A DNA stretch of 62,870 bases, counting the filler, from Jimgerdemannia flammicorona (Eukaryota), in assembly GCA_003990765.1 (NCBI GenBank). It is 2 parts of 2 records of this genome, joined end to end, with 100 filler letters (N's around TTAATTAATTAA, not from the genome) between each part and the next. Parts side by side here need not be neighbours in the genome. Positions count along the whole stretch, not along the records: positions 1 to 31,392 come from RBNJ01000404.1; 1 more part is not named here. One strand, 5' to 3'. Under the pieces are notes generated by a model. It made no database searches. It saw only the letters and a list, made by a program, of their open reading frames with translations, and was not told the origin of the DNA. Numbering within the stretch: position 1 is the first letter of the stretch; every line of letters starts with the position of its first letter. A program made the translations under genes and the position numbers. Positions 14,824 through 60,600 of this stretch are shown piece after piece.

Positions 14824-17081
14824 TAACCTATACCTTCAGATAACCCTCGAGATCAAACCAACCACTCCACTACCCAAGTATGAGTGATATGAACCACAGC
14901 CACCAGCTTACTACAACCTTGTAACTCATAGTGCTGTAATCTATAGAAGATATACAGACAGTGAATCCAATAAAAGTAAAGATAATATATCACTTCTTCA
15001 CCTATTAACTCTATATCCAGCATATAAGACAGATGATACTATCCTATAGGACAGCAATAAAGTCTCAATATATTACTACCTTAGTGAATAAGAAGAATTA
15101 ATCCATGAACAACTCTTCCTAGACAACTACTTTATCAGAAATAATGCTATTGATAGTGATGTCATTGAATGCTCCTTTCTTTACTATCTTACTGGTCATA
15201 TGGTTTGGTAGGTGACCTTCTGAGTTCTCTTTCCCCTATTATTACCCTCTCTACCTCAGGTTGGTTTGCTGTGCCTGCAGGGGCATGGTGAGAGGAGGGC
15301 AATGGTGATGAGTTGTCCCTTTATTGGTGTTGGATTGGTGCTTTCTTCACTTTTTTACAGATTCTGGTGCCTTCGGCTGTATCTGGGGTATACTCATTTT
15401 GGTGCAGTGCCTTCTTTCTTTTGCCATCACCAACAAGGAGTTGTCTTGGTGTGTCTCAGGCTACATAGGGAGTCAGCTGACCTTGGGCATCAAGTGCTCA
15501 GTGTAGGTTACCTGCAGGTCCTCAGTACCTATAGTGGGGTCTTCTGGCTTTGGCAAGCTTCCCAGTGAGTACAGTTCTAGCATAGATGACTGTTTTTTAG
15601 GTATTGTTAGGTTGGGAGGGGAGATGGCCATCATAGATAGGAGGAAGGATGATTATGGTGAACCAGTAGGATGCCAGGCTGGGGGCAGTCATCAGGGCTG
15701 GGGCAAGTGCTGCTTCAGTGGGGCCTTTTGATTGGTGCAGTGTGGTTAGGTAGTAGGTGTCACTCTTGGCTTCTTTTGGTGGTCAGCGGGGTTGGGCCCC
15801 AGTCATCAGGGGGGGTCGGGGGGCCCGAGGCTACCCATTTCAGGTGTCTTGGCTGCACTCAACTGGAATCGGGAGCTGATATGGCAACATAATTGAGGCT
15901 TACAGACTTGAGTAGTGGGGTATTGGAGATCTCCTCCCACCTCACATGTAAGTCCTTTACTCATCTTGACTAGGAGAACTAGGCCCTACTCACCATGTTA
16001 TACTTTGATAAGGGTTTTTCTTTGCCTATCATTCTCTTTGGGGTGGTAGGGGCTATTCTATTCAGCTTAGGTATGGCCTTGTATATATGTTGGATTCTTA
16101 GATATATGCTTTCAGTCATTGGCATATGATTGGGTTTCTCCTGGTAGTAGGGAGAGCATGGTGTGCAGAATGAGGCATAGGCCAATATAGACCCTATTGC
16201 ATCTAGTATAGTCAAGCTGCTGGACAATAGCTAGCCTAGGTTAATAGGGAGGCAGTGCTTGGTGAGTGGTGGAGGAGGGTTTTAGCCTATATAGTCTAGG
16301 TTCCCTTCCAATAAAAATCTGTAGGACATGAGTCCATTAAAAAAAAAAAAAAAAAAAAAAGTGATGTCATTGAAGACTATCCAGACAGCATCTAAATCTA
16401 TAAATAGTTTAGCAGTCATAGCATAGTTAGATTAGCCTTGTATGATGTGACTGTGAACTGACTCAGCAGTTAGATGATCTCTTGATATATCAGATCACAC
16501 TTATACTATGTGACTATATTCTGACTCAGCAAAGTACTAAGTACTACATCCATATCTAGTATAGCTTAGATAGCTCCTCACTAGTATAAATACCCCCTCC
16601 TCCAGACCTCAGAATCTCAGACTTGAATAGACTTAAATACACAAGAACATTCCTGAATACTTCTCTATAATATCCCTTCATACAACTACTCCTAGTATAG
16701 CAATATTATGAATAGTGAATAAATCTATTTAATAACCTACAAACTACTCTTAAGTAAACCTGCTCTCTGTTAGGTCCCACTCTTAACCCCATTATGAAAT
16801 TTCCTAATTGGGTATTGTCTGCAGCGATATGCCAATTCAACTAAGCTGGTCTTAGTTTCTTGAACTTCCTAAAATATGAAAAATTCTGAATATCTAAAAC
16901 TAGTCCAAAAAAGGACTTTGGTTGAGATGTCAACCCAATCTTGAAATCAATAAGCATGGAGGATATACTCCATATGAAATTGATCTGGACCATAAGAAAA
17001 CAGTCTTCCAGAATATCCAGAACTTCCAGAAAACCCTTTCAGAACTATGTAACAGTTACTCTAAAAAGCAACCCTCTTACA
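14824..17081 (+). mobile_element. 3' part of a family-B LTR (ORF C-terminus to ...CTCTTACA), interrupted by a SINE-like element
   Basis: Colinear with 56654-57698; sequence resumes after the 15-bp TSD at 16360-16374. Confidence 0.9.
15170..16360 (+). mobile_element. ~1.2 kb non-autonomous poly(A) retroelement (SINE-like), copy 1
   Basis: 15-bp TSD AGTGATGTCATTGAA at 15155-15169 and 16360-16374; AATAAA then GAGTCCATT(A)n; homologous to 19632-20640 and 30201-31392. Confidence 0.9.
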
Positions 17082-18050
17082 CTAATACTGTTTTACAATA
17101 TTCTAAAAGGTTCTATGACTAGTTAAGATAAGATACTTAGTACCAAGAAAAGACAAGAATATTCTAGTAGTGTCTGAGTGCTAAGAGAAGGTTTCTAAGT
17201 AAGTAGAAGGTAGTGAAATATAGTAGAATATTTAAGAAATGATAAGAAAAGACTAACTAAAAGATGTAAAAATATACTAAGACTAAATATAACTGTGAAA
17301 TTATTATATAGTTTATCAAATATATATATATATAGTATTCTATCTTATTACTCAATCTCTTTAGTAGAACTTTCTTCCATCTTCTCATATTTGAAGGCTA
17401 TCTTACTATCTACTACTACAACCCTCTCTTTATTCTATCTATAAATTTTCTCTACTAAACATGACTTATGATCTATTTACAGACCTTATCCCAGTTATTA
17501 TCTCATCAAAATATCTACCATTAACTCTTCTTATCTTGCCAGCTACTCTCCCAATAAGCTTTCTTATAAAGACTTATAAGAATATAGATCTTGCTTAAAA
17601 ATAAGTACTCTCTAGTAAGATAATAGTAGAGGATATAATTTTTAGAAAGTATAAAAATATAAGTATAAAGTCATTAGCTTATTTATGAGTCATTAATCTC
17701 AATAATTATAAAGTTATATTTTTGTTCTCTCTAACAGATTGGAAAGAGATCAGCAGTTAAATATTATCTCTACTATAGTTTAATATATTAATAGTAAAGT
17801 CAGTATTAAGATTTACTAAGGTATATTAATATATTTTCTCTTTCTTTTTTCTAGTATAGACTCTTAAAAATAATTTACATCAAGTCTACTATAGAAACTA
17901 AAAACTATAGTATTATTAGAAGTATATTGAAAAATAAGTAGAGTGAAAAATTGTATCTTATATTTTCAAAATAGTTAATATTAAAACTATTTAGATAAAG
18001 AAGGAATTATAAAATTTATCAGAAAGAACTAAAAGAGAAAGACTATATAG

Positions 18051-24893: not shown

Positions 24894-26716
24894 TGCCCTC
24901 TGATTGCTCATTCGCATCTTCCTTCTGTTTCTTCTTTAATCCATCACTCTCATTTTGCATTTTTGTCATCTTCTGGTGCCTCCGGCTCTGCTGGAGAGGA
25001 TTAAAAAATATCCTTGCCCCCTCCAGGGTCTTGTGCTTGCTCCGGGGTCTCGGCCTTACTCTGCTCCCCTCCACTGCCTTCAGCCCCTCACTTCACTCGG
25101 GCTTGCTGCAGCTTGCTCTGTTTTGGCCTCACCCCTTGCTCACACTCACTCCTCCGGGGTCTGTAGATGTTTTTTAATCTCGATTTGGATTTGTTTTGTT
25201 TGTATTTGTTTGTAATTTTTATCCTGCAACTAGGATTGGCTCCCCCTTTATCTCTGCTTATCTCTGACAGTTATGTGGTTTCTAATTTGGTTTGCCTTGA
25301 GTTGTGATATGTTCTCTCTTTTGGGACGTCATATTTTATATATAAGGACCACATTTTTACATAGCAATAAATGGCTGATACAATTTTGGTTACGTTCTTT
25401 GTTCATCCCCCTTATACACGCTCTTCCACATATCTTCCATTCGCTTTGACACTGGCTCTGGGTTCACTCCCTTAGCTCCCGCTGGGCCTTCTTCCTCCTC
25501 TACTAGCATACTATATCTCTACAACACATTGTACCATTATCTACTAAAGATATATAGACAGCAAATCCAATGAAAACAAAGATAATGCACCTCTTCTCTA
25601 TCTACTGATATCCTACCCAATATATGAGACAGATGATACTATCTTATAGGTTAGTAATATAGTTCTAACCTACTACTATATAAATAAATAAAGAGATATA
25701 ATCCAAGAACCACACTTCCTAGATAACTACTTTATCAAAGATGATATTATTGATAATGATATCATAGAAGAATATCCAGATAGTATCTAAATCTATAAAT
25801 AGCTTAGTAATTATTAGTATAGTTAGATTAATCTTATACTATATAACTGTATACTGACTCAGCAGTCAGATGATCTCTTGACATATCAGTTCACATTTAT
25901 ACTATATGGTGCGTGCTGCAACAAAACCAGACAAAGTGAACATCGAGCAATTGTTGAAAAGACGTTATTTTCCTTGCCTCTTGGCAGGCTTCCTCATTAG
26001 CATCCAGCATACCATCGCTGTTATCCCGGCCGTAGCCAAGATGGCGGGAATTAGTCATAAAGAAGATATTTGACTTGAATTACTTTTTTCTTCAATTTTA
26101 TTCTTACCTCAGATTTTGGCGTATTTTTCGGGGTCACGGAGTTTTTCGGCTATTCGTTCGTTTTCCATAGTGCCTGAAATTTTGTTATCAGTAGGTCGTG
26201 CTTCATTCGGTAATCATCATCTCTGCAGTTTGTATCTAGGAAATAAACCAACTACCAGTTCAGAATTATGATAATTATCGACAAAAGCCAAAGGAGTTTT
26301 TGATTCTTCATTTTTAAGATTTCACTCTTCTCGAAGTCAAATTTTAACAGTGAAATCATGACAAACTTTCTTGTCTTCCATCTTTCACATTAACTCCTTA
26401 AGCATTTCACCAACTTCGTTTCAAGTTTCTTGGTCGATGGCGTTTATGTCATTGGGTAGATGGTTCTTGGTGGAGATGCCCGTAATTACCATGTTAGCAT
26501 ATGGGGCATGCTGCAGCAAAACCAGACAAAGTCAATACAAGACTATACACGTAAGGTTGTGACTTACTCGATTTATTTTGTAACAGGATATTGTCAATAA
26601 CTACAACCGCGACCATAAAACAGAAAGCATTTTAATTGTCCGAGTCTATGAATATCCAAATATGTTCACTCATGATTTATGCGTTACTCTGTTCTTGCGT
26701 GGCGTGGACTTGGTTT

Positions 26717-29700
26717 CTATTCGAAGATCCCTTCCTCATTCTCTTCGTTGCTCTCCCACGCCGCATCCTTCAATTCTTCGATTATCCGAAGCATTTCGAG
26801 TTTCACCCTAATCAAACTCTTGAATATCTTATCGAGGCGCTTGATATCATCAAAGGCAGTTGGTAAAAGCAATTTCTCGACTACGGTGGTGGTGTAGATA
26901 CGGTAGTGGAAGAGTTGACATTTATAGATAGTCATTGTGAACCCTAAAAGACAGTTAAATAGATAAAATTTTAAGGAACGCAGCCAGAGGAAGAGCATTC
27001 CACAGATATTATACGTACCATACACCAAAATTCCATAGACGCACATTCTTCTGACCCTCTCCACGTCCATGTTAGAAACCAACCGATCCAATGCCAGCTT
27101 CATTCCTTTCAGAAGCGCTTGACGGTCACGTTTATGTTTCTTCTCGTTCTTTATGGAAGGTGGTCCCGCTACCTCTACAATGAGCAATTCTTCTCTATCC
27201 TCTCGACGGGCTGAGATTCGGAAGCCAATGCAATCCGATTTTTTCCCAATACGCTGCCGCAAACCACTATGATCGTCTTCTTCGTTAAAATCGGACGTAT
27301 TTCGATTTTGGGACGATGCTACCAATGCTTTCTCTCCCCTTGATATGGGTATAAGGAATAAAAAGCAAATGAGACCACGCAGCTTTGATTCAAAGGGGAT
27401 GTCACGTTCTCAAAGATCTTACCATTCTAACTCGATATCCCGACAATCAGTGAAAAGATCGTCAATTAAACGGCCAAGGTATCGTAGGATGAAGGTTCCT
27501 TCGCTCATGTCCACTTCAATCTTTCCGGAACTGCTTAAATCAAACCGGTTTACACTGACAGAAAAACGAAGCGTTGTAAGAAGGAAAGCCGGAGACTGTA
27601 ACCAGACAAACTTTTCTACTTACAATTTTTCCGTTGCCATACAAATCCATTGTACCAGAAAGGGTATTGTAGAATCTGCTTGAGTGTTCCCCATAGTGAT
27701 ACTTCCCCTTTCTACAATGATTGCTTTCTTCTGTATAGCTGCGTTTCTCCCCAAATGTCGAATATTTTCCAGAATTTGGGCAAAGTCCAATATTTCTCGT
27801 CGTTGTCCGAAGATATATTTTAAGACCATCTCAATAGGGTCCCCAAGGGATATATTAAAAGAACGCCTTTGGCTTGCATGCTGATATTAAAAAGTTCGTA
27901 TGTCAGTTGGAAGAAACGATTTTCCATGAGTAATGAAGCAGAAGAGGTAACCCACCAAAGTGTAGCTCTTTTTTACTGAAGCCTGGCTGTGGCGAATCGT
28001 CTATTAACATCTGATATTTGTACGAAAGGTCATCCCTCTTTCTGGCCGCCAAGATGTCTTTGACAATGGTACCAGATGACAAGACCAGTTGCAAATTCTG
28101 TAAAACATGGGAGGAAACGTTTTTTAAAAACAGTTTACATTCACTTACATAAGTAACTATCCAAATTACCTGTAACTTTTTGGCAATCGATTCAGCACGC
28201 GCCCTATCTTCCAATGACTCCTCGTATCGATCTTCACCATCTCGCTCCATATCGTCGATCTGACTTTCTTCTCGGACCTCTCGGACCTTTTTCGACGATT
28301 TGAAAACCATGTGGGTTATGTCTTACGAGCATCAAGGAAGTTTAAATTTACGAAAGTACATACAGATGCATCTTGGTTGGGGGGTTCATAAAAAACACTT
28401 TTCTCGTAGAAATCGCGATCAGAAGGTTGTCGAACCTGCACAATGTTTAAAGAAAAACTAAATATCTTTGAATATTTCAATTCCATTAACAAAATATGAA
28501 TAAATACGTACCTCAATTTCTTCCTCAGAACTCTGTTCTGACGCTTTCTGCATCATTTAAACAAAAAAGCTTGACTACCAGAAGCAACCAAATGATTTCA
28601 TAAGCGACTATGCTTGACACTTACCAATTTCCTTTTCGGTCTTTCTTTTTCTGAGAGTTCCTTGGTTCCAGACTGGAAAGAAAGTAAGAAAGTTACATAT
28701 TATGAACATTTCTCAACTGACGGCAAACATTTATATCAAACAAATCGCTTTAAATGAATATAACTTGAAGACACTTACAAATTGATCATCGATCTTCCTC
28801 TTGTGCTCCAACAGTTGCGTGGATGCATTGTGATAATCATTGTACCGTTTCCTTATGTGGCGGAAACCGTCGAGGATCACAGAATCCTAGAATATTCACA
28901 AGGTAAATTTCTCATGCGACTGGGGATGAGCAAAATCAAATGTTCTAACCTTGGTGATTTCGAGTTTCTTTTTCACAATCTTATGTTTGGTCAAGAGTTT
29001 GGATATCTGATGTCCCTGCTCATTCCGATAATAGTTTGATAACTCAATACGAAATAACCTATGCTGAGACGTCTAAACGTTCATAAAACCAACGCCAGAA
29101 AGCAAGGCAGTCTGAGGGACTGAGGACTCTACCACCTCGAAGACGCACAATTTACGAGGACCACCCCGCGATTATAGGACGCACCCATATTGCCACGGAG
29201 GACGCACCCCCGATCTACGAGGACACACCCCGCGAATGTCAAGGACGCACCCTGACAACATCTGAGGATCTATGATATACCCCAGTCCCACAGGCTGTTC
29301 TACTTTCATTATTCCCACGCCAACGCCAAAAGCTACATTACCTTTACTGTCAGCTCCAGCTCTGTGAGACGAGCTTGAACAGGATGTTCCCCAACAAACA
29401 GGGCCCGTAGAACCTCAATCTCTTTCAGGAATGCATGGTGTGCTCGATCTTTGCTGCAACTACCTTCCTTCTTACATAGATGTTCGAGGAATTCGTCGAC
29501 GATCGGCCAGTTACTGAAAGGTTGGTTCCAGATGTCTGCTGGGGGTGTAAGTAAAAGGCTCTGTGCTGCAAATGTTTGGAAGTAAAGTATGAACCCCTTA
29601 CCATAGTACCGTAGAAGCCGAGAAGCACACTCAGGTAAATGGCAAGATCCGAATTGCTCGGGAGAGGCCTTTGTGGAAAAACAGCAGAGTATTAGGGAGT

Positions 29701-29890
29701 TTGCACAAATAGGATATCCGTGTTGATTTCGGAAAAACAGTCAAGTCAGATATCCGTTAAGAAATGAGTTTGCACAACACGGATTCTCGTATATAGGGTA
29801 CGAGATGTGACCTACCTCGCCTTCCTTTGAGTTGTTGGCGTCAGCGTCGGCGCCGGCGTTCGAGTTCTCGGGTCCATTCGATATTGACAT
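26717..29890 (-). CDS. Multi-exon gene for a protein with a C-terminal PD-(D/E)XK restriction-endonuclease-like (CR-REase-like) domain
   Basis: ATG at 29890 (MSISNGPEN...), GT-AG introns (e.g. 29815-29669); motifs SEGTF, GEKAL.AS, GKKSD, ELLIVEVAG, K...DR..L.K.MK; CpG-rich and unmutated; exon structure only partly resolved. Confidence 0.7.
29138..29270 (+). repeat. Short degenerate tandem array with a GGACGCACC core (~21-bp period) in an intron
   Basis: About six copies of (A/G)GGAC(G/A)CACC visible. Confidence 0.7.
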
Positions 29891-29921
29891 GATCTGAGAG
29901 AAACATATCAAAAAGAGGCGG

Positions 29922-29922
29922 T

Positions 29923-29962
<40 letters not shown>
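29922..29962. repeat. (GA)n microsatellite upstream of the REase gene ATG
   Basis: Direct reading. Confidence 0.95.
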
Positions 29963-29963
<1 letters not shown>

Positions 29964-30200
29964 GACTTTGACGCGTCTGAGTAGTGGTGAGAGACACGGG
30001 CACTTACGTGATGATCGATGAAATAAAAGTATGATGCGTAGTGTGGTAGTATGGAAGAAAACAAAAACGCAAAAAGTTTTGGCTTGCAAGAAAGTCACGT
30101 GTCGGCTGACATAACTCTGATAGGCTGAACGGATTACAAGCTGTCGCAAATGAAGGTCCTCTCAAATGGGTCGTGAACGTTCAAACTGGCATATGACTAT

Positions 30201-31392
30201 CCCCCAGGTCCTTTCTCCGCTACCTTACCGGTCACAATGGTTTGGTAGGCAACCTTCTGAGTCCACTTTCCACAATTATTACCCCCTCTACCTCAGGTTG
30301 GTTTGCTGTACCTGTTGCAGGGCAGTGGGAGGGAGGCGATGGTGATGAGTTGCCCCTTTATCAGTGTCAGATCGGTGTCTTCTCCACTTTTTCGCAGATT
30401 CTGGTGCTCTCGGCTGCATCTGGGGTGTACCCGTTTTGGTGTGGCGCCTTCTTCCTTTTGCCATCGCCAACAAGGAGTTGTCTCGGTGTGTCTCGGACTA
30501 CGTAGGGAGTCAGCCGACCTTGGGCGTCAAGTGCTCAGTGTAGGTTACCTGCAGGTCCTCGGTACCTGTGGTGGGGCCCTCTGGCTTTGGCGAGCTTCCT
30601 GGCGAGCACGGTTCTGGCGTAGGTGACTGTTTTTTCGGGTGATATCGGGATGGGAGGGGAGATGGCCGTCACAGATAGGAGGAAGGGTGATAACGGTGAA
30701 CCAGTGGGGTGCCAGGCTGGGGGCAGTCATCGGGGCTAGGGCGGACAATATTTCGGTGGGGCCTTTCGATTGGCTGGTGGGGGGTGGGGTGGTGCAGGGG
30801 CCGGCATCCTGGCTATACCCAACTGGAACCGGGAGCTGATGCAGTAATGCGATTGAGGCCCACAGACTTGGGGAGTGGGACCTTCCTCATTTGGCAGTAC
30901 CTGACTGGAACCGGGAGCTGACACGGCAACATGATTGAGGCCTGCAGGCTCGGGGAGTGGGAGTGGGGTCTTTTCAGGCCCTAGCCCATGTGTAAGTCCT
31001 TTGAGGGTGGTGTTGTGTATAAGTCCTGCTTTGAATCTACTTTACTCTCTGTTAGTTGGTTGGGGGGTTTTTTTCTTTGCCTTGAGCTTTCTTTTGGGGT
31101 TCGGAGGGCTATTCTTTATTCAATCCCGGCGCTGCTAGATCCGATGTGTAGGTGTGCTCTCGCATGTAAATGATGATCCAGCCCTGGTGAGCAGATAAGT
31201 CTAGTCTATGTCGTTGGGGTCAACGTAGCCGGTGTTTGACAGGTATAGCTGGAGTGGTGGGACTGTTGGACAATTTAGTAGCCTAGGTTAATGGGGGGAT
31301 ATTGTTCGGTGGGTGGTGGGGGAGGGTTTTGGCCTATATAGTCTAGGTTCCCTTCCAATAAAAATCTGCGGGACTATGAGTCCATTAAAAAA
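30201..31392 (+). mobile_element. SINE-like element copy 3, least mutated (CpGs retained), poly(A) runs into the gap
   Basis: Homologous to 15170-16360; ends AATAAAAATCTGCGGGACTATGAGTCCATT(A)n; internal ~82-bp tandem duplication ~30821-30965. Confidence 0.88.
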
Positions 31393-31492
31393 NNNNNNNN
31401 NNNNNNNNNNNNNNNNNNNNNNNNNNNNNNNNNNNNTTAATTAATTAANNNNNNNNNNNNNNNNNNNNNNNNNNNNNNNNNNNNNNNNNNNN
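31393..31492. other. Artificial contig linker (N44-TTAATTAATTAA-N44)
   Basis: Six-frame stop spacer centred in an N run; adjacency across it is unproven. Confidence 0.97.
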
Positions 31493-55635: not shown

Positions 55636-57698
55636 TATAAGTGCACAACCTCCAAGCCACCAAAATCACATGTCACCCTCTGAACAAGTCACTGAAATCA
55701 CACATGACCTCCAAACAAATCTGGAAATCACCTGCTTGATCACAAAGCTGAGTCAAACCGAAGTAACAGCACATAAAGCTGAGTCAATACGAAGTCACGA
55801 AACACAAGATTTACACAAACAGAATCTTACCAATCAGGATCAAATGTATATATACTAAGCCCCAAGACATGTCAAAACAGAGAACCAAAACAAACAAACT
55901 ACAACTTCTGAATATATACAAATATGACCACTGAGATCTATAACTGCATCTGCACTGACATTTGGAATACCATTGTCAACCAAGCTACATCCCCTCTACC
56001 CCTCATGAATATTCATAGCCTAGCACCCCTCTACTTCGTGGAAGCCTGATAGAATGCTCTGAATATGCTTAGTGAGGCCCACCGAATCAGGCAAATCTCA
56101 AGCTACTACCAGATCAGCTATCTCCTATAAGATATGGTCAAACACTACCACAATACAGACATTACCCAGATGTCTCAACACCAGAAGCTCATCACCTGCA
56201 AACATTGAGAACTCTTCTATAAGTATAGTACTGTTATTCCCCACCTCTGAGTTACTACCACTGAAATGGTTGCTACTCTGTCCTATGGCCAAATTGATGA
56301 TATGATATAGGAACTCAACCACAAGTACCTCGAGTACATTGAAACTACAGACAGAACCTTCCCACACCTCAATGATTATATCCTGCAAATGCCCCAAGTC
56401 AGATATGCCATGAAGGACATCTACAATATAATCCACTTTGACAAAGACAAAGCAGAAGACAATGATCCCCTGATGCCAACATGACCTCTAGTCAAGAATC
56501 TCTGCCAACCCTGATCACACCACCAACCTTGCCGATGAACTTACAACAGTTCATAATCACATATAAGACTTATTGGGACAATGACTACTGGTATGAATAC
56601 CAACTCACGTTCACCTCCAATTACTTCAACTACAATGAAGAGACTGAAGAACACAACCTGTACCTTCAGACAATCCTTGAGATCGAACCAACAACTCCAC
56701 TACCTGAGTATGAGCGACATAAACCACAACCACCAGCTTACTACAACCCTGTGACTCACAGTGCTGTAACCTACAGAAAGTATGCAGATAGCAAATCTGA
56801 TGAAAGTGAAGATGATACACCCCTCCTTTGCCCACCAATACCTTACCCAGCATATGAGACTAACAATGCTATCTTGTGGGATGGAGACGAAGTTCCAATA
56901 TATTACTACCTCAGCCAACAAGGAGAAGTAATCCGCGAACCACTCTTTCTGGATGACTACTTCATCAGAGATGATATCATCAATAGTGATATCATCGAAG
57001 ACTACCCAGACAGCATCTAAAGCTATAAATAGCCTAGCAGTCATAGTATAGTTAGATTAGCCTTATACAATGTGACTGTGAACTGACTCAGCAGTCAGAC
57101 GATCTCTTGACATGTCAGATTACACTTGCACTACATGACTGTATTCTGACTCAGCAAAGTACTAAGTGCTATATCTATATCTAGCATAGTCCAGATAGCC
57201 CCTCACTAGTATAAATACCCCCTCCCCCAGACCTCAGAATCTCAGATCTGAACAATCTGAATACAACTCCTGAGCACTTCTCTACAATATCCCTTCATAC
57301 AACTACCCCTAGTATAGCAATATCATAAATAGTAAATAAACCTATTTAATAATCCACAAACCACTCTTAAGTAAATTTGCTTCTCATTAGGTCCCACTTC
57401 TAACTCTGTCACGAAATTTCCTAATTGGGTATTGTCTGCAGTGATATGCCAATTCAACTAAGCTAGCCTTAGTTTCTTAAACTTCCTGAAATACAGAAAA
57501 TCCTGAACATTCAGAACTAGTCCAAAAAAGGACTTTGGTTGAGACATCAACCCAATCTTGAAATCAATAAGCATAGAGGACATACTCCATATGAAATTGA
57601 TCTTGACCATAAGAAAATGGTCTTCCAGAATATCCAGAACCTCCAGAAAACCCTTCCAGAACTATGTAATGGTTACCCTAAAAAGCAACCCTCTTATA
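55636..57698 (+). mobile_element. Solo LTR of family B (2063 bp)
   Basis: 5-bp TSD CTATG (55631-55635, 57699-57703); removal restores pol HTDP-MKIEAI; termini TA...TA are decayed TG...CA (the copy ending at 17081 ends CA); TATA 57210, AATAAA 57335. Confidence 0.92.
55924..57020 (+). pseudogene. ~365-aa ORF of unknown function inside the family-B LTR
   Basis: MTTEIYN... frame with TGA/TAG/TAA stops, a 1-bp deletion near 56470 (absent in the 37633-38798 copy), then open ORF 56481-57020. Confidence 0.78.
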
Positions 57699-60600
57699 CT
57701 ATGAAGATTGAGGCTATTGCAACCTACCCAAGACCCAGAACAACTACAGAAGTTCATGCCTTCCTTAGACTGACTTCTTACTATAGAAGATTCATCAAAG
57801 AATACTCTAACATTACAGCACCTATCTATAAGCTACTGAAGAAGGAGAACAAATTCGAATGGACCAAGAAACCTTCAATAAACTCAAGACCAGATTGACC
57901 CAAGCACCTATTCTCAGAAGATCAGATTGGAATCTAGAGTTCATCCTGCAGACAGATGCAAGTGCTATAAGACTTGAGTCCTAGCTCAGAAGAAAGATGG
58001 ATATGAATATGTCATCTCCTATATAAGCTGAGATATCTATAGAGCAGAACTGAACTACAAGTCATATAAGCTTGAATACTTAGCAGTAGTTTGGGCAGTA
58101 GATAAGTTCTACTACTACTTAACTAGGAAATACTTCACCATTCAAACAGACTATTCTGCTCTTACCTGACTGTTCCACACTCTGAACTCTAAAGAAATAT
58201 ACCAGATGGATCTACAGGCTGCAAGAGTATGATTGTACTGTCAAGCACTACTTAGAGAAAACCAATACCAATGCTGATACACTCTCAAGGATACTCTGAA
58301 ATACTCCATCAAGACTATTCAATATAAATAATATACTATGGATTAATTAGCTATCTTGGGCAGTGGAAGATGCCCAACTACCTCAAACTCTGGACAATCA
58401 CCATCATCAACTAGACTTGGAAACAGTTTGAACTAAATAATACCATTCTCAGAAAAAGAAGAAAGCTAGTAATACCCAAACACAAGAAGTATCAAGTAAT
58501 ATGAGCAAGGACATCTAGGTGGAACCAATATATATGATAAGGTAAAAAGAACCATATAGTGGCCCAAGATGGAAGAAGACCTGCACCAATTTGTCAAAGG
58601 GTGTGATAAGTACCAAAAACAGAAACAAGATCAGCAAGATCAGACACCTGAGTCATCAAGAATTGAACCTATCCCCTTTCACCACATTGCAATGGATATC
58701 ATTGGGCCACTACCAGTAATACTATCAGGAAACTGCTATATTATAGTTATTGTAGATCTCTTTATCAAATGGATAGAAGTAGGAGTATTACAAGAAGTCA
58801 ATGCCCTCTCTATAGCCAACTTCCTGCATCAAGAAATCATTTGCTACTACAAGACACCAAGACAAATTACTACAGACTATGGCACAGAATTTATCAATGG
58901 ATTCCATGAGATAATATATCAGAAATATAAGATTCAGTACATCAAGATCACCACATACCACCCTTAAGGAAATAGACAGATAGAGAGAACCAACAAGACC
59001 CTCAAGAACATCCTAGCAAAGATCTCAGACACATACAAGAATTGGGATAACTACCTCCCAACTGTCCTCTCTGTCCTACAAGATATACAGTCACAGAGTA
59101 TACACTTTATCTCAAGAGAACTGCTCTTCAGAGAAGAAGATTCTGATAGAACCTCAGCTATAAATCTGGACCTAACTTAGAGATAGGTTGATACAGAAAT
59201 CCAGAGGCTATACCAAATCAGGAAGAAGGCTGAAGATTATATCATCAAGTCACAAGTACTGATAAGAAAGAATGTGAAAAAGAATCACAAGACCCTAGAA
59301 CCCATCCAAATTGGAGAAAAGGTCCTACTATATTGAAATATAGTAGAAGCCTCATAGTTATGAAAACTGAAGCCCAAATGAGAAGGACTCTTCTATGTAC
59401 AAGATATCAAGAGAACTACCTTCTGGCTTAGAAAAATCTTAGGGACCATACTGCCTACCATAGTATACAGAAACAGACTCAAGAAGTACCATGAACCTAT
59501 ACAAGAGAAGTAAAATGTGATGACCACCCATGAGGTTCTAGTCCATGAATCATAACAATATGTTCCATGACTAGCAGGCTATCTGTCTGGACCATTTTCT
59601 AAGAGATACAGCACTAGTAACTACTCATCTGTGAGACTTTCAAAACTAGAGGAGTTCAAACTGCCAACTGATTGGTCAAGATCAGAATCAGGCCCTTGCT
59701 TTATATGAAGGGAGTGACCCTTCACCATTACACTAAAATACAAAGAGAAGATACCAGTCCATAAACACTACTTTTTGACCCCTTGCCAGAGATTATGGGA
59801 TCAGCAAATTTTTCAAGACTAGATTAATGAATAAGGATATTTAAGAAGATCCTTATTCAGAAGAGAGATGTAGTGATAACTCTAGAATAGTGATATCAGC
59901 ACAGGAGATAGCCTTTTCTTGCAAGTCATTAGATCAGAGCATAAGAAGATCATATGTATGATATATAAGATGAGTAATGATGACTAACTGTGAGTCATTG
60001 TGACCATAGTATAGGTATCTTGAGGAATATAAAAGAAGGATCAAGGAACCACAGTAGCAGTAACCAATAAGATCCACTAATCCCAAAATAGCTCAAAGAC
60101 TTATCATAAACAAAATATCTATTGTTTACCAAATCTTAAGGTCAAGGAACTACCAAGGCACCTCAGTTGAAGAAAAGATGTTCCAAGACATCAGAAGAGC
60201 CATGAGGATCTGCTCAAGAAGGACTCCTAGTGTCAACCTGGATACTGGTGACTCTTATCAGTATATCCTCTACTGCTGTGAAATAGAAACAAGGATCACC
60301 ATTGCTACTGAATACCTTCAAATATAGTAGGAGTATGAAATAGGAAACCTCCTCTGCTGAGAGTTCCCACAGGCCAGCCCTCAAGAGTTATAAGATGCCA
60401 CTCCTATATATATATAAGAAGTAAGAACAGCTAAGAAGATTCATCAGATCTTCAGGTATGTACCATAATCAATCCCCAACTTGGAGTATATTAGAGTCTC
60501 AGATTTCAGAGATCTGTCAGCCTACTATATTAATACACTAGAAGTCAGAGTGGCTACAGAAGCCCAGTCCACTATCACCCTCAATAATTATGAAGTAGAA

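Follow-up and report, generated by a model that had tools for sequence, protein, structure and literature searches.

We analysed a window of 62,870 bases from the fungus Jimgerdemannia flammicorona (GCA_003990765.1; two parts of two records joined end to end), in which a 4.29-kb block (25908-30190) interrupts an old dispersed repeat and carries a spliced gene for a protein with a restriction endonuclease (REase) fold. The block begins with the terminus of a DNA transposon family whose longer members encode proteins assigned to the Pfam family DUF7869. Elements of this widespread cut-and-paste family normally end as the block does on its left, so an ordinary transposon, and not the gene's own nuclease, most likely placed the block. 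What the initial annotation observed largely holds. It had proposed a mobile unit that uses the REase: insertion at the DNA level is supported, and the REase as mover is not, since the left end is that of the DUF7869 family. The features of the locus are listed below, with the evidence for each.

25502..25907, plus strand: repeat B' (called LTR-B', for long terminal repeat, in the initial annotation); self-BLAST, alignment and composition, with a CpG observed/expected ratio (o/e) of 0.00
25904..25907, no strand: ATAT, left copy of the 4-bp target; sequence and family flank statistics
25908..25953, plus strand: transposon terminus, copy 1 (GGTGCGTGCTGCAACAAAACCAGACAAAGTGAACAT...); nhmmer, run contigs and metagenome matches
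25908..26498, plus strand: left arm (E1), the terminal ~590 bp of a DUF7869-type element; match to metagenome locus L037, CpG o/e 0.95
26499..26561, plus strand: ATAT and transposon terminus, copy 2, oriented like copy 1; BLAST and nhmmer
26717..29890, minus strand: REase-fold gene, modelled with 14 exons and ~635 codons; its annotated halves are BC938DRAFT_479580 and BC938DRAFT_479581
27019..27338, minus strand: exon 13, the core of the nuclease fold (GKKSD...LIVEVAGPP...KRDRQ); 100% identical to P0001, a hypothetical protein of Jimgerdemannia flammicorona
27952..27964, minus strand: 11-base difference in exon 10; contigs of runs X2, X3 and X4 are longer than the assembly here (contigs re-read)
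29910..29968, no strand: (GA)n tract just upstream of the ATG; sequence, skipped there in run contigs as a repeat
30191..30200, plus strand: ATAT (right target copy) and GACTAT, the expected continuation of repeat B; sequence, alignment and 10-mer count
30191..30203, plus strand: sole match in the window to ATANNNYTATCCC, an internal family motif that is not an element end; pattern search
30206..31392, plus strand: retroposon resembling a short interspersed element (SINE), running to a poly(A) at the contig end; 84-87% identical to 15173-16344
31393..31492, no strand: contig joint, N runs around TTAATTAATTAA; no true adjacency

Repeat B' (25502-25908) is a truncated copy of a dispersed repeat of at least 1.07 kb, as found by self-BLAST of the window. 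There are two other copies: one is split by a SINE (14825-15169 and 16357-17084) and one lies at 56655-57701; repeat B' aligns to 16362-16512 at 84% and to 56777-57137 at 75-81%. It breaks at 25903-25908, where both other copies continue for ~575 bp beyond the break point, in agreement with the stop at 25908 that had been reported. Insertion of the block into this repeat looks right as well; its identity as an LTR is a label of the initial annotation that was not confirmed (eight flanking open reading frames, ORFs, gave no Pfam family), and what the sequence establishes is a dispersed repeat.

The description of the block as a CpG-rich segment of about 4.3 kb also holds: its CpG o/e is 0.98, as compared with 0.00 in repeat B'; 1-kb bins on its left (1-26000) range over 0.00-0.37, and the two on its right have 0.52-0.59. 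The block sits 1.2 kb from the contig end, and there is no genuine neighbourhood to the right of the SINE.

The left junction and its transposon family

The left junction reads ACT/ATAT/GGTGCG, and the repeat B site elsewhere in the window has ATGT or ACAT where repeat B' has ATAT. A terminus model, built for nhmmer from 100 distinct metagenome copies, has two matches in the window (25903-25953, E 4.9e-15; 26499-26561, E 2.1e-12), which are the sole matches below E 1; in both, 46-59 nt past the ATAT agree with the model. The stretch 25904-25937 is repeated at 26499-26532 (91%, same orientation), with an ATAT (26499-26502) before the second copy too. The ~40-nt terminus reaches a summed depth of 2180, 15856 and 2521 in the contigs of sequencing runs X1, X2 and X3, respectively, versus roughly 25-250 over the gene, while in run X4 the values are 0.7 and 3-7. 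Contigs of the four runs that contain the terminus differ on both sides of it, with loose ends at 25901-25905 and 25940-25947 (agreement ~0.55).

We define the family by this terminus, the 23-mer core of which was searched in soil metagenome contigs; it is present in at least 120 loci, and all counts of loci and copies given here are among the matches listed. The outer flanks of the 120 loci are unrelated up to a sharp edge between (T)ATAT and GGGGC(A/G)TGCTGCAACAAAACCAGACAAAGTGAACAT, and a few subfamilies can be told apart on the inner side of the terminus. Immediately ahead of GGGG, 65 of 98 distinct copies have the 4-mer ATAT (A at position -4 in 88, T at position -1 in 89), and the minor 4-mers pair as reverse complements (AAAT/ATTT, ACTT/AAGT, ACAT/ATGT, AATT), as would be expected of a target duplication read from either strand. 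A 5-bp duplication had been proposed for the block; as the left junction consists of a 4-bp ATAT followed by the element's first base, G, the fifth base is not part of a duplication. The exact terminus core has no match in prokaryote species genomes.

Past the terminus the left arm matches metagenome locus L037 (GC 38%), which has different flanks: 25904-26247 is 87% identical (94% in the first 282 columns) and 26380-26438 is 75% identical. By our reading of the printed sequence, L037 would carry a transposase C-terminus ~1.1 kb inside its terminus. Longer metagenome loci encode ORFs with Pfam DUF7869, e.g. L043 (2105-3892, 595 aa), L070 (1917-3671, 584 aa) and L063 (2133-3896, 587 aa); these three ORFs are open only if TGA is read as tryptophan, and two smaller ORFs follow before the terminus. 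We regard the DUF7869 protein as a putative transposase. A literature search for DUF7869 found no paper, and a PDB sequence search for its relatives returned nothing useful.

Of the terminus pairs within a locus, the arrangement '+ ... -' occurs in none of the 120 loci, abutting '- +' in four and '+ +' in one. True terminal inverted repeats (TIRs) in the family would follow from the finding of termini adjoining both ends of the gene set. For the block, the absence of TIRs and unusual termini had been claimed; the left end turns out to be the canonical terminus of a multi-copy family, and it is the right end that is not canonical.

The block shares with the DUF7869 family a terminus with a sharp outer edge and, on both sides, a 4-bp target of the form ANNT (mostly ATAT), here ATAT, as a putative duplication. 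An inverted terminus at the other end was not found, nor was a DUF7869 protein in the scanned frames. The earlier statement that the block has no transposase gene stands for the nine minus-strand exon-bearing frames, in which there is no transposase-type Pfam family; the plus-strand frames were not scanned. Other DUF7869 elements differ from the block, which shows no transposase in these frames and carries a gene with spliceosomal introns, and this copy is at best non-autonomous.

Two results concern the inner part of the left arm. An inverted terminus at 26461-26487 was considered and dropped (z ~2 versus shuffles, and missed by the independent nhmmer model), and an Rfam search of 25700-26800 gave no match. 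One X1 contig skips a 102-nt stretch (26466-26567, minus strand), joining 26568-26942 to 25966-26465; the skipped stretch has GTAAGT..AG on the minus strand and is largely terminus copy 2. It is an intron in the 3' untranslated region that contains this copy, i.e. transposon-derived sequence is removed like an intron. Beyond the skip the contig is only ~93% like the window, with identical exons.

The right junction and the SINE

The block ends ...CTGGC ATATG ACTAT CCCCC, with the 10-mer ATATGACTAT at 30191-30200, the sequence that the initial annotation had given for its end. Over both strands of the 62,870 bases, this 10-mer has no second exact occurrence, and 13 places match it with at most one mismatch. 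Excision of 25908-30194 restores ACT-ATAT-GACTAT, where the other repeat B copies read ACTATGTGACTAT and ACTACATGACTGT, in agreement if C-to-T decay is allowed for; this supports insertion of the whole block.

Five C's (30201-30205) lie between ACTAT and the SINE and fit neither repeat B nor the SINE; the SINE start (30206) was set by comparison with the copy at 15170, which is defined by its target site duplication (TSD). That second SINE-like copy (15170-16359) lies inside another repeat B copy, has a 15-bp TSD (AGTGATGTCATTGAA) and a CpG o/e of 0.08, versus 0.51 in the copy beside the gene.

The sequence ATATGACTATCCC was considered as a canonical right end of the family and dropped: in five copies the 89% likeness extends ~200 nt beyond it and reaches into a small ORF.

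The gene and its product

The gene is read on the minus strand from an ATG at 29890 to a stop at 26717-26719. It is the sole gene of the block and has introns, as had been stated: 11 of the 13 introns, bounded by GT..AG when read on the minus strand, are spliced out as predicted in contigs of the four coded runs (X1-X4, from three coded organisms; none covers 29922-30135). The public annotation splits it into P0012 (N-terminal half) and P0001 (C-terminal half), probably because of the 11-base gap in exon 10. With the 11 bases, exon 10 reads ...PGFSKKELEEINTLHASQRR..., resembling paralogue P0002 and the Endogone protein P0004; the assembled exon is frameshifted, a different allele or copy, or mis-assembled. 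Close relatives are few: 69% identity within the same assembly (P0002; there are two annotated paralogues), 55% to an Endogone protein (the Endogone relative is BC937DRAFT_87620), and two unnamed fragments. Intron 3 (29120-29260) has several loosely repeated GGTGCGTCC-like units (minus-strand reading).

Searches of the gene products against Pfam, NCBIfam and PDB sequences found nothing useful (a Pertussis_S1 row, E 0.03-0.16, fell below the cut-off), and a literature search on this REase family was likewise negative. Relatives at E <= 0.001 comprise 56 cluster representatives in an exhaustive search, and 18 of these reach E <= 1e-10; 20 representatives were looked up, and the 16 that could be named belong to Endogonales, nine Glomeromycotina genera, one Mucorales species and three chytrids.

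The fold was recognized by structure. An AlphaFold2 (AF2) model based on 32 sequences (pLDDT 80.8, pTM 0.78) matches BpuSI with Z 11.5 (root-mean-square deviation 3.8, 156 aligned), DrdV with Z 10.7 and EcoRI with Z 7.9; REase-like mitoribosomal proteins reach Z 11.0 and 10.7, and SgrAI, NgoMIV and NucC have lower structure scores than BpuSI and DrdV. Foldseek alone gave no match at E <= 0.001. By this model the C-terminal half has the PD-(D/E)XK fold, with the core order alpha-beta-beta-beta-alpha-beta, and the PD-(D/E)XK-like domain named by the initial annotation is predicted there. D184 is invariant among the 32 relatives, and D148, E163 and E168 are each conserved in 90% or more; at +2, where (D/E)xK should have its lysine, there is S or A; the catalytic lysine may possibly be supplied from elsewhere.

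CR-REase domains of Crinkler (CR) effectors are tied to transposon-associated prokaryotic NTPase-REase modules in what PMC5289972 and PMC6131194 relay from Zhang et al. 2016, and the families are expanded in Glomeromycotina and chytrids, a likeness shared by our protein along with the fold. The difference is that scans of the gene halves (P0012 and P0001) and of 34 further relatives reveal no Crinkler N-terminal domain, NTPase or kinase; the Crinkler (Ubl) header, PF20147, likewise has no match in the 32 family members or in P0012, P0065, P0004, P0003 and P0019. The name CR-REase, when used for this gene, is a matter of resemblance only.

The REase-family profile finds exons in two of the 120 metagenome loci: L023 (588-900, E 9e-12) and L098 (3-170, E 4.4e-4). 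The two contigs are unrelated, and in both the exons are immediately outside a terminus. In this layout, the transposon sits in or beside a gene of the REase family, which is its target and not its cargo. We treat the association as a lead. That the REase-fold family is a recurrent partner of DUF7869 elements in Endogonales and Glomeromycotina (either as cargo carried repeatedly, or with nuclease genes and transposon homing into each other, a whole spliced gene thereby moving within the transposon family) seems improbable to us at present. The REase family and the ORFs beside the transposase show no homology (hhalign probability <=0.1).

Origin of the block

We give an even chance to transposon-mediated carriage or capture of a low-copy gene that looks functional, by a DUF7869-family event into repeat B', and regard this account as the most economical. 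A cut-and-paste DNA transposon with a ~40-nt terminus and an ATAT target would have placed the 4.29-kb block into the old repeat; the block reads, in order, terminus, ~590 bp of family left arm, second terminus copy and complete, expressed 14-exon gene, the last being, in this account, cargo or transduced neighbour DNA. The whole block could have arrived as one unit through aberrant or one-ended use of a non-canonical right end, or through gap-repair capture inside a resident element, and the joining would be performed by a DUF7869 protein in trans. The insertion can be explained without the nuclease that the gene encodes, and a new transposition mechanism is not supported.

Several observations weigh against this account. 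There is no inverted terminus at the right end, where the best score is 17 (mean of 400 control segments, 20.6; 97.5% of the controls reach 17) and the nhmmer terminus model finds nothing. Only six bases past the right ATAT support resumption of the repeat, before the five C's, the SINE and the contig end. The 13 bases at 30191-30203 also match the internal family motif, and the element may continue under the SINE. The close gene family is low-copy, and a single copy with these ends was seen; the REase exons in L023 and L098, being outside the terminus, are not cargo. Finally, the transposase role of DUF7869 is a presumed one: Pfam assigns no function to the domain, and the search for a solved relative was negative.

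The gene may instead be a resident host gene around which repeat B, two DUF7869-type fragments and the SINE accumulated, joined by deletions, with the ATATGACTAT on the right arising by chance. It is low-copy, expressed and spliced, and has relatives across early-diverging fungi; a CpG-normal island is what any unmethylated gene among CpG-depleted repeats should look like, and the non-canonical right end fits a resident gene too. But the gene is inside both termini with only ~60 nt of element body between, for which extra deletions are needed, and a 10-mer found exactly once in 125,740 strand positions would have to be at the block edge, in register with the left break, by coincidence. We consider this history doubtful.

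It is quite improbable that the block is part of a longer transposon cut by the SINE, i.e. that the element goes past 30190, with ATATGACTATCCC standing there as the family's internal motif and the true right terminus beyond the SINE and the contig end. The pattern ATANNNYTATCCC, expected 0.58 times per window, has its sole match exactly at 30191-30203, and in the 15 of 120 loci that have it, it is always on the terminus strand. However, 14 of these 15 loci have the motif ~215 nt or less from a same-strand terminus and before a small ORF, where it is not an end; here it is 3.7-4.3 kb from the termini, off the family layout, and the pattern was derived after the window had been viewed.

An autonomous unit that cuts and inserts through its own REase-fold protein, in the manner of a homing endonuclease with ACTATATGACTAT as its site, was the model of the initial annotation. 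In its favour, the fold is real, the acidic residues are conserved, and REase-family exons are found beside the transposon family in L023 and L098 as well as in the window. But the left end is the terminus of another family, with that family's target; private ends shared between copies are lacking; the paralogues found number just two, both diverged; S or A takes the place of the lysine of (D/E)xK; and the gene is low-copy and spliced, is present in four runs, and is distantly related to genes of Glomeromycotina, of a Mucorales species and of chytrids. We judge this model very unlikely.

An assembly chimera at 25904 or 30200 is hardly credible: repeats flank the block, the last feature of the contig is a SINE, and exon 10 lacks the 11 bases of the run contigs, yet an X2 contig (25769-25926) crosses the left junction, though with only ~20 letters to the right of it, fewer than the 31 required.

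For transposon-mediated carriage there are known parallels. ISEcp1-type transduction in bacteria, Pack-MULEs and Helitrons carry neighbouring DNA by one-ended or alternative-end transposition or by capture. Like them, the block has one good end and a second that is poor or cryptic, with a putative target duplication and carried host DNA; it differs in that ISEcp1 and Pack-type systems mostly move gene fragments or resistance genes, whereas the block holds a whole 14-exon gene with its upstream region. Helitron ends are 5'-TC...CTRR-3', with insertion between A and T and a Rep/helicase gene; a Helitron was therefore rejected for the block, the ends of which are GG... and ...GGC between ATAT copies.

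Closer in content are the toxin-domain (Crinkler-like) genes of fish that are flanked by TIRs of non-autonomous hAT or mariner elements (AACRNL; PMC12957317). In both cases transposon ends lie on either side of a host-type gene that encodes a conflict-type enzymatic domain, and the transposase would act in trans. AACRNL is reported to have both TIRs and several copies, whereas the block has one canonical end and one copy, and belongs to another transposon family with another domain.

If the block moved as a unit, it would be a clear example of gene relocation by a DNA transposon in an early-diverging fungus, the gene being complete, working and rich in introns. Its carrier would then come from a transposon family of which little has been described and which abounds in soil metagenomes. 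Pfam has no entry for the nuclease-fold protein family to which the gene belongs, and the transposon family gains a usable signature: terminus, ATAT target and internal motif.

Two further observations were made on the metagenome members of the transposon family. In L020 (1477-1540), L084 (244-330) and L022 (1111-1200) a pair of facing termini is separated by ATAT or a short AT-rich spacer, as though elements inserted beside each other's ends. In L005 (240-420) and its relatives a conserved motif, ATATAGAACTATCCCTATAC, precedes a small conserved ORF (MKLIYI...) by ~20 nt and may be the promoter region of this ORF.

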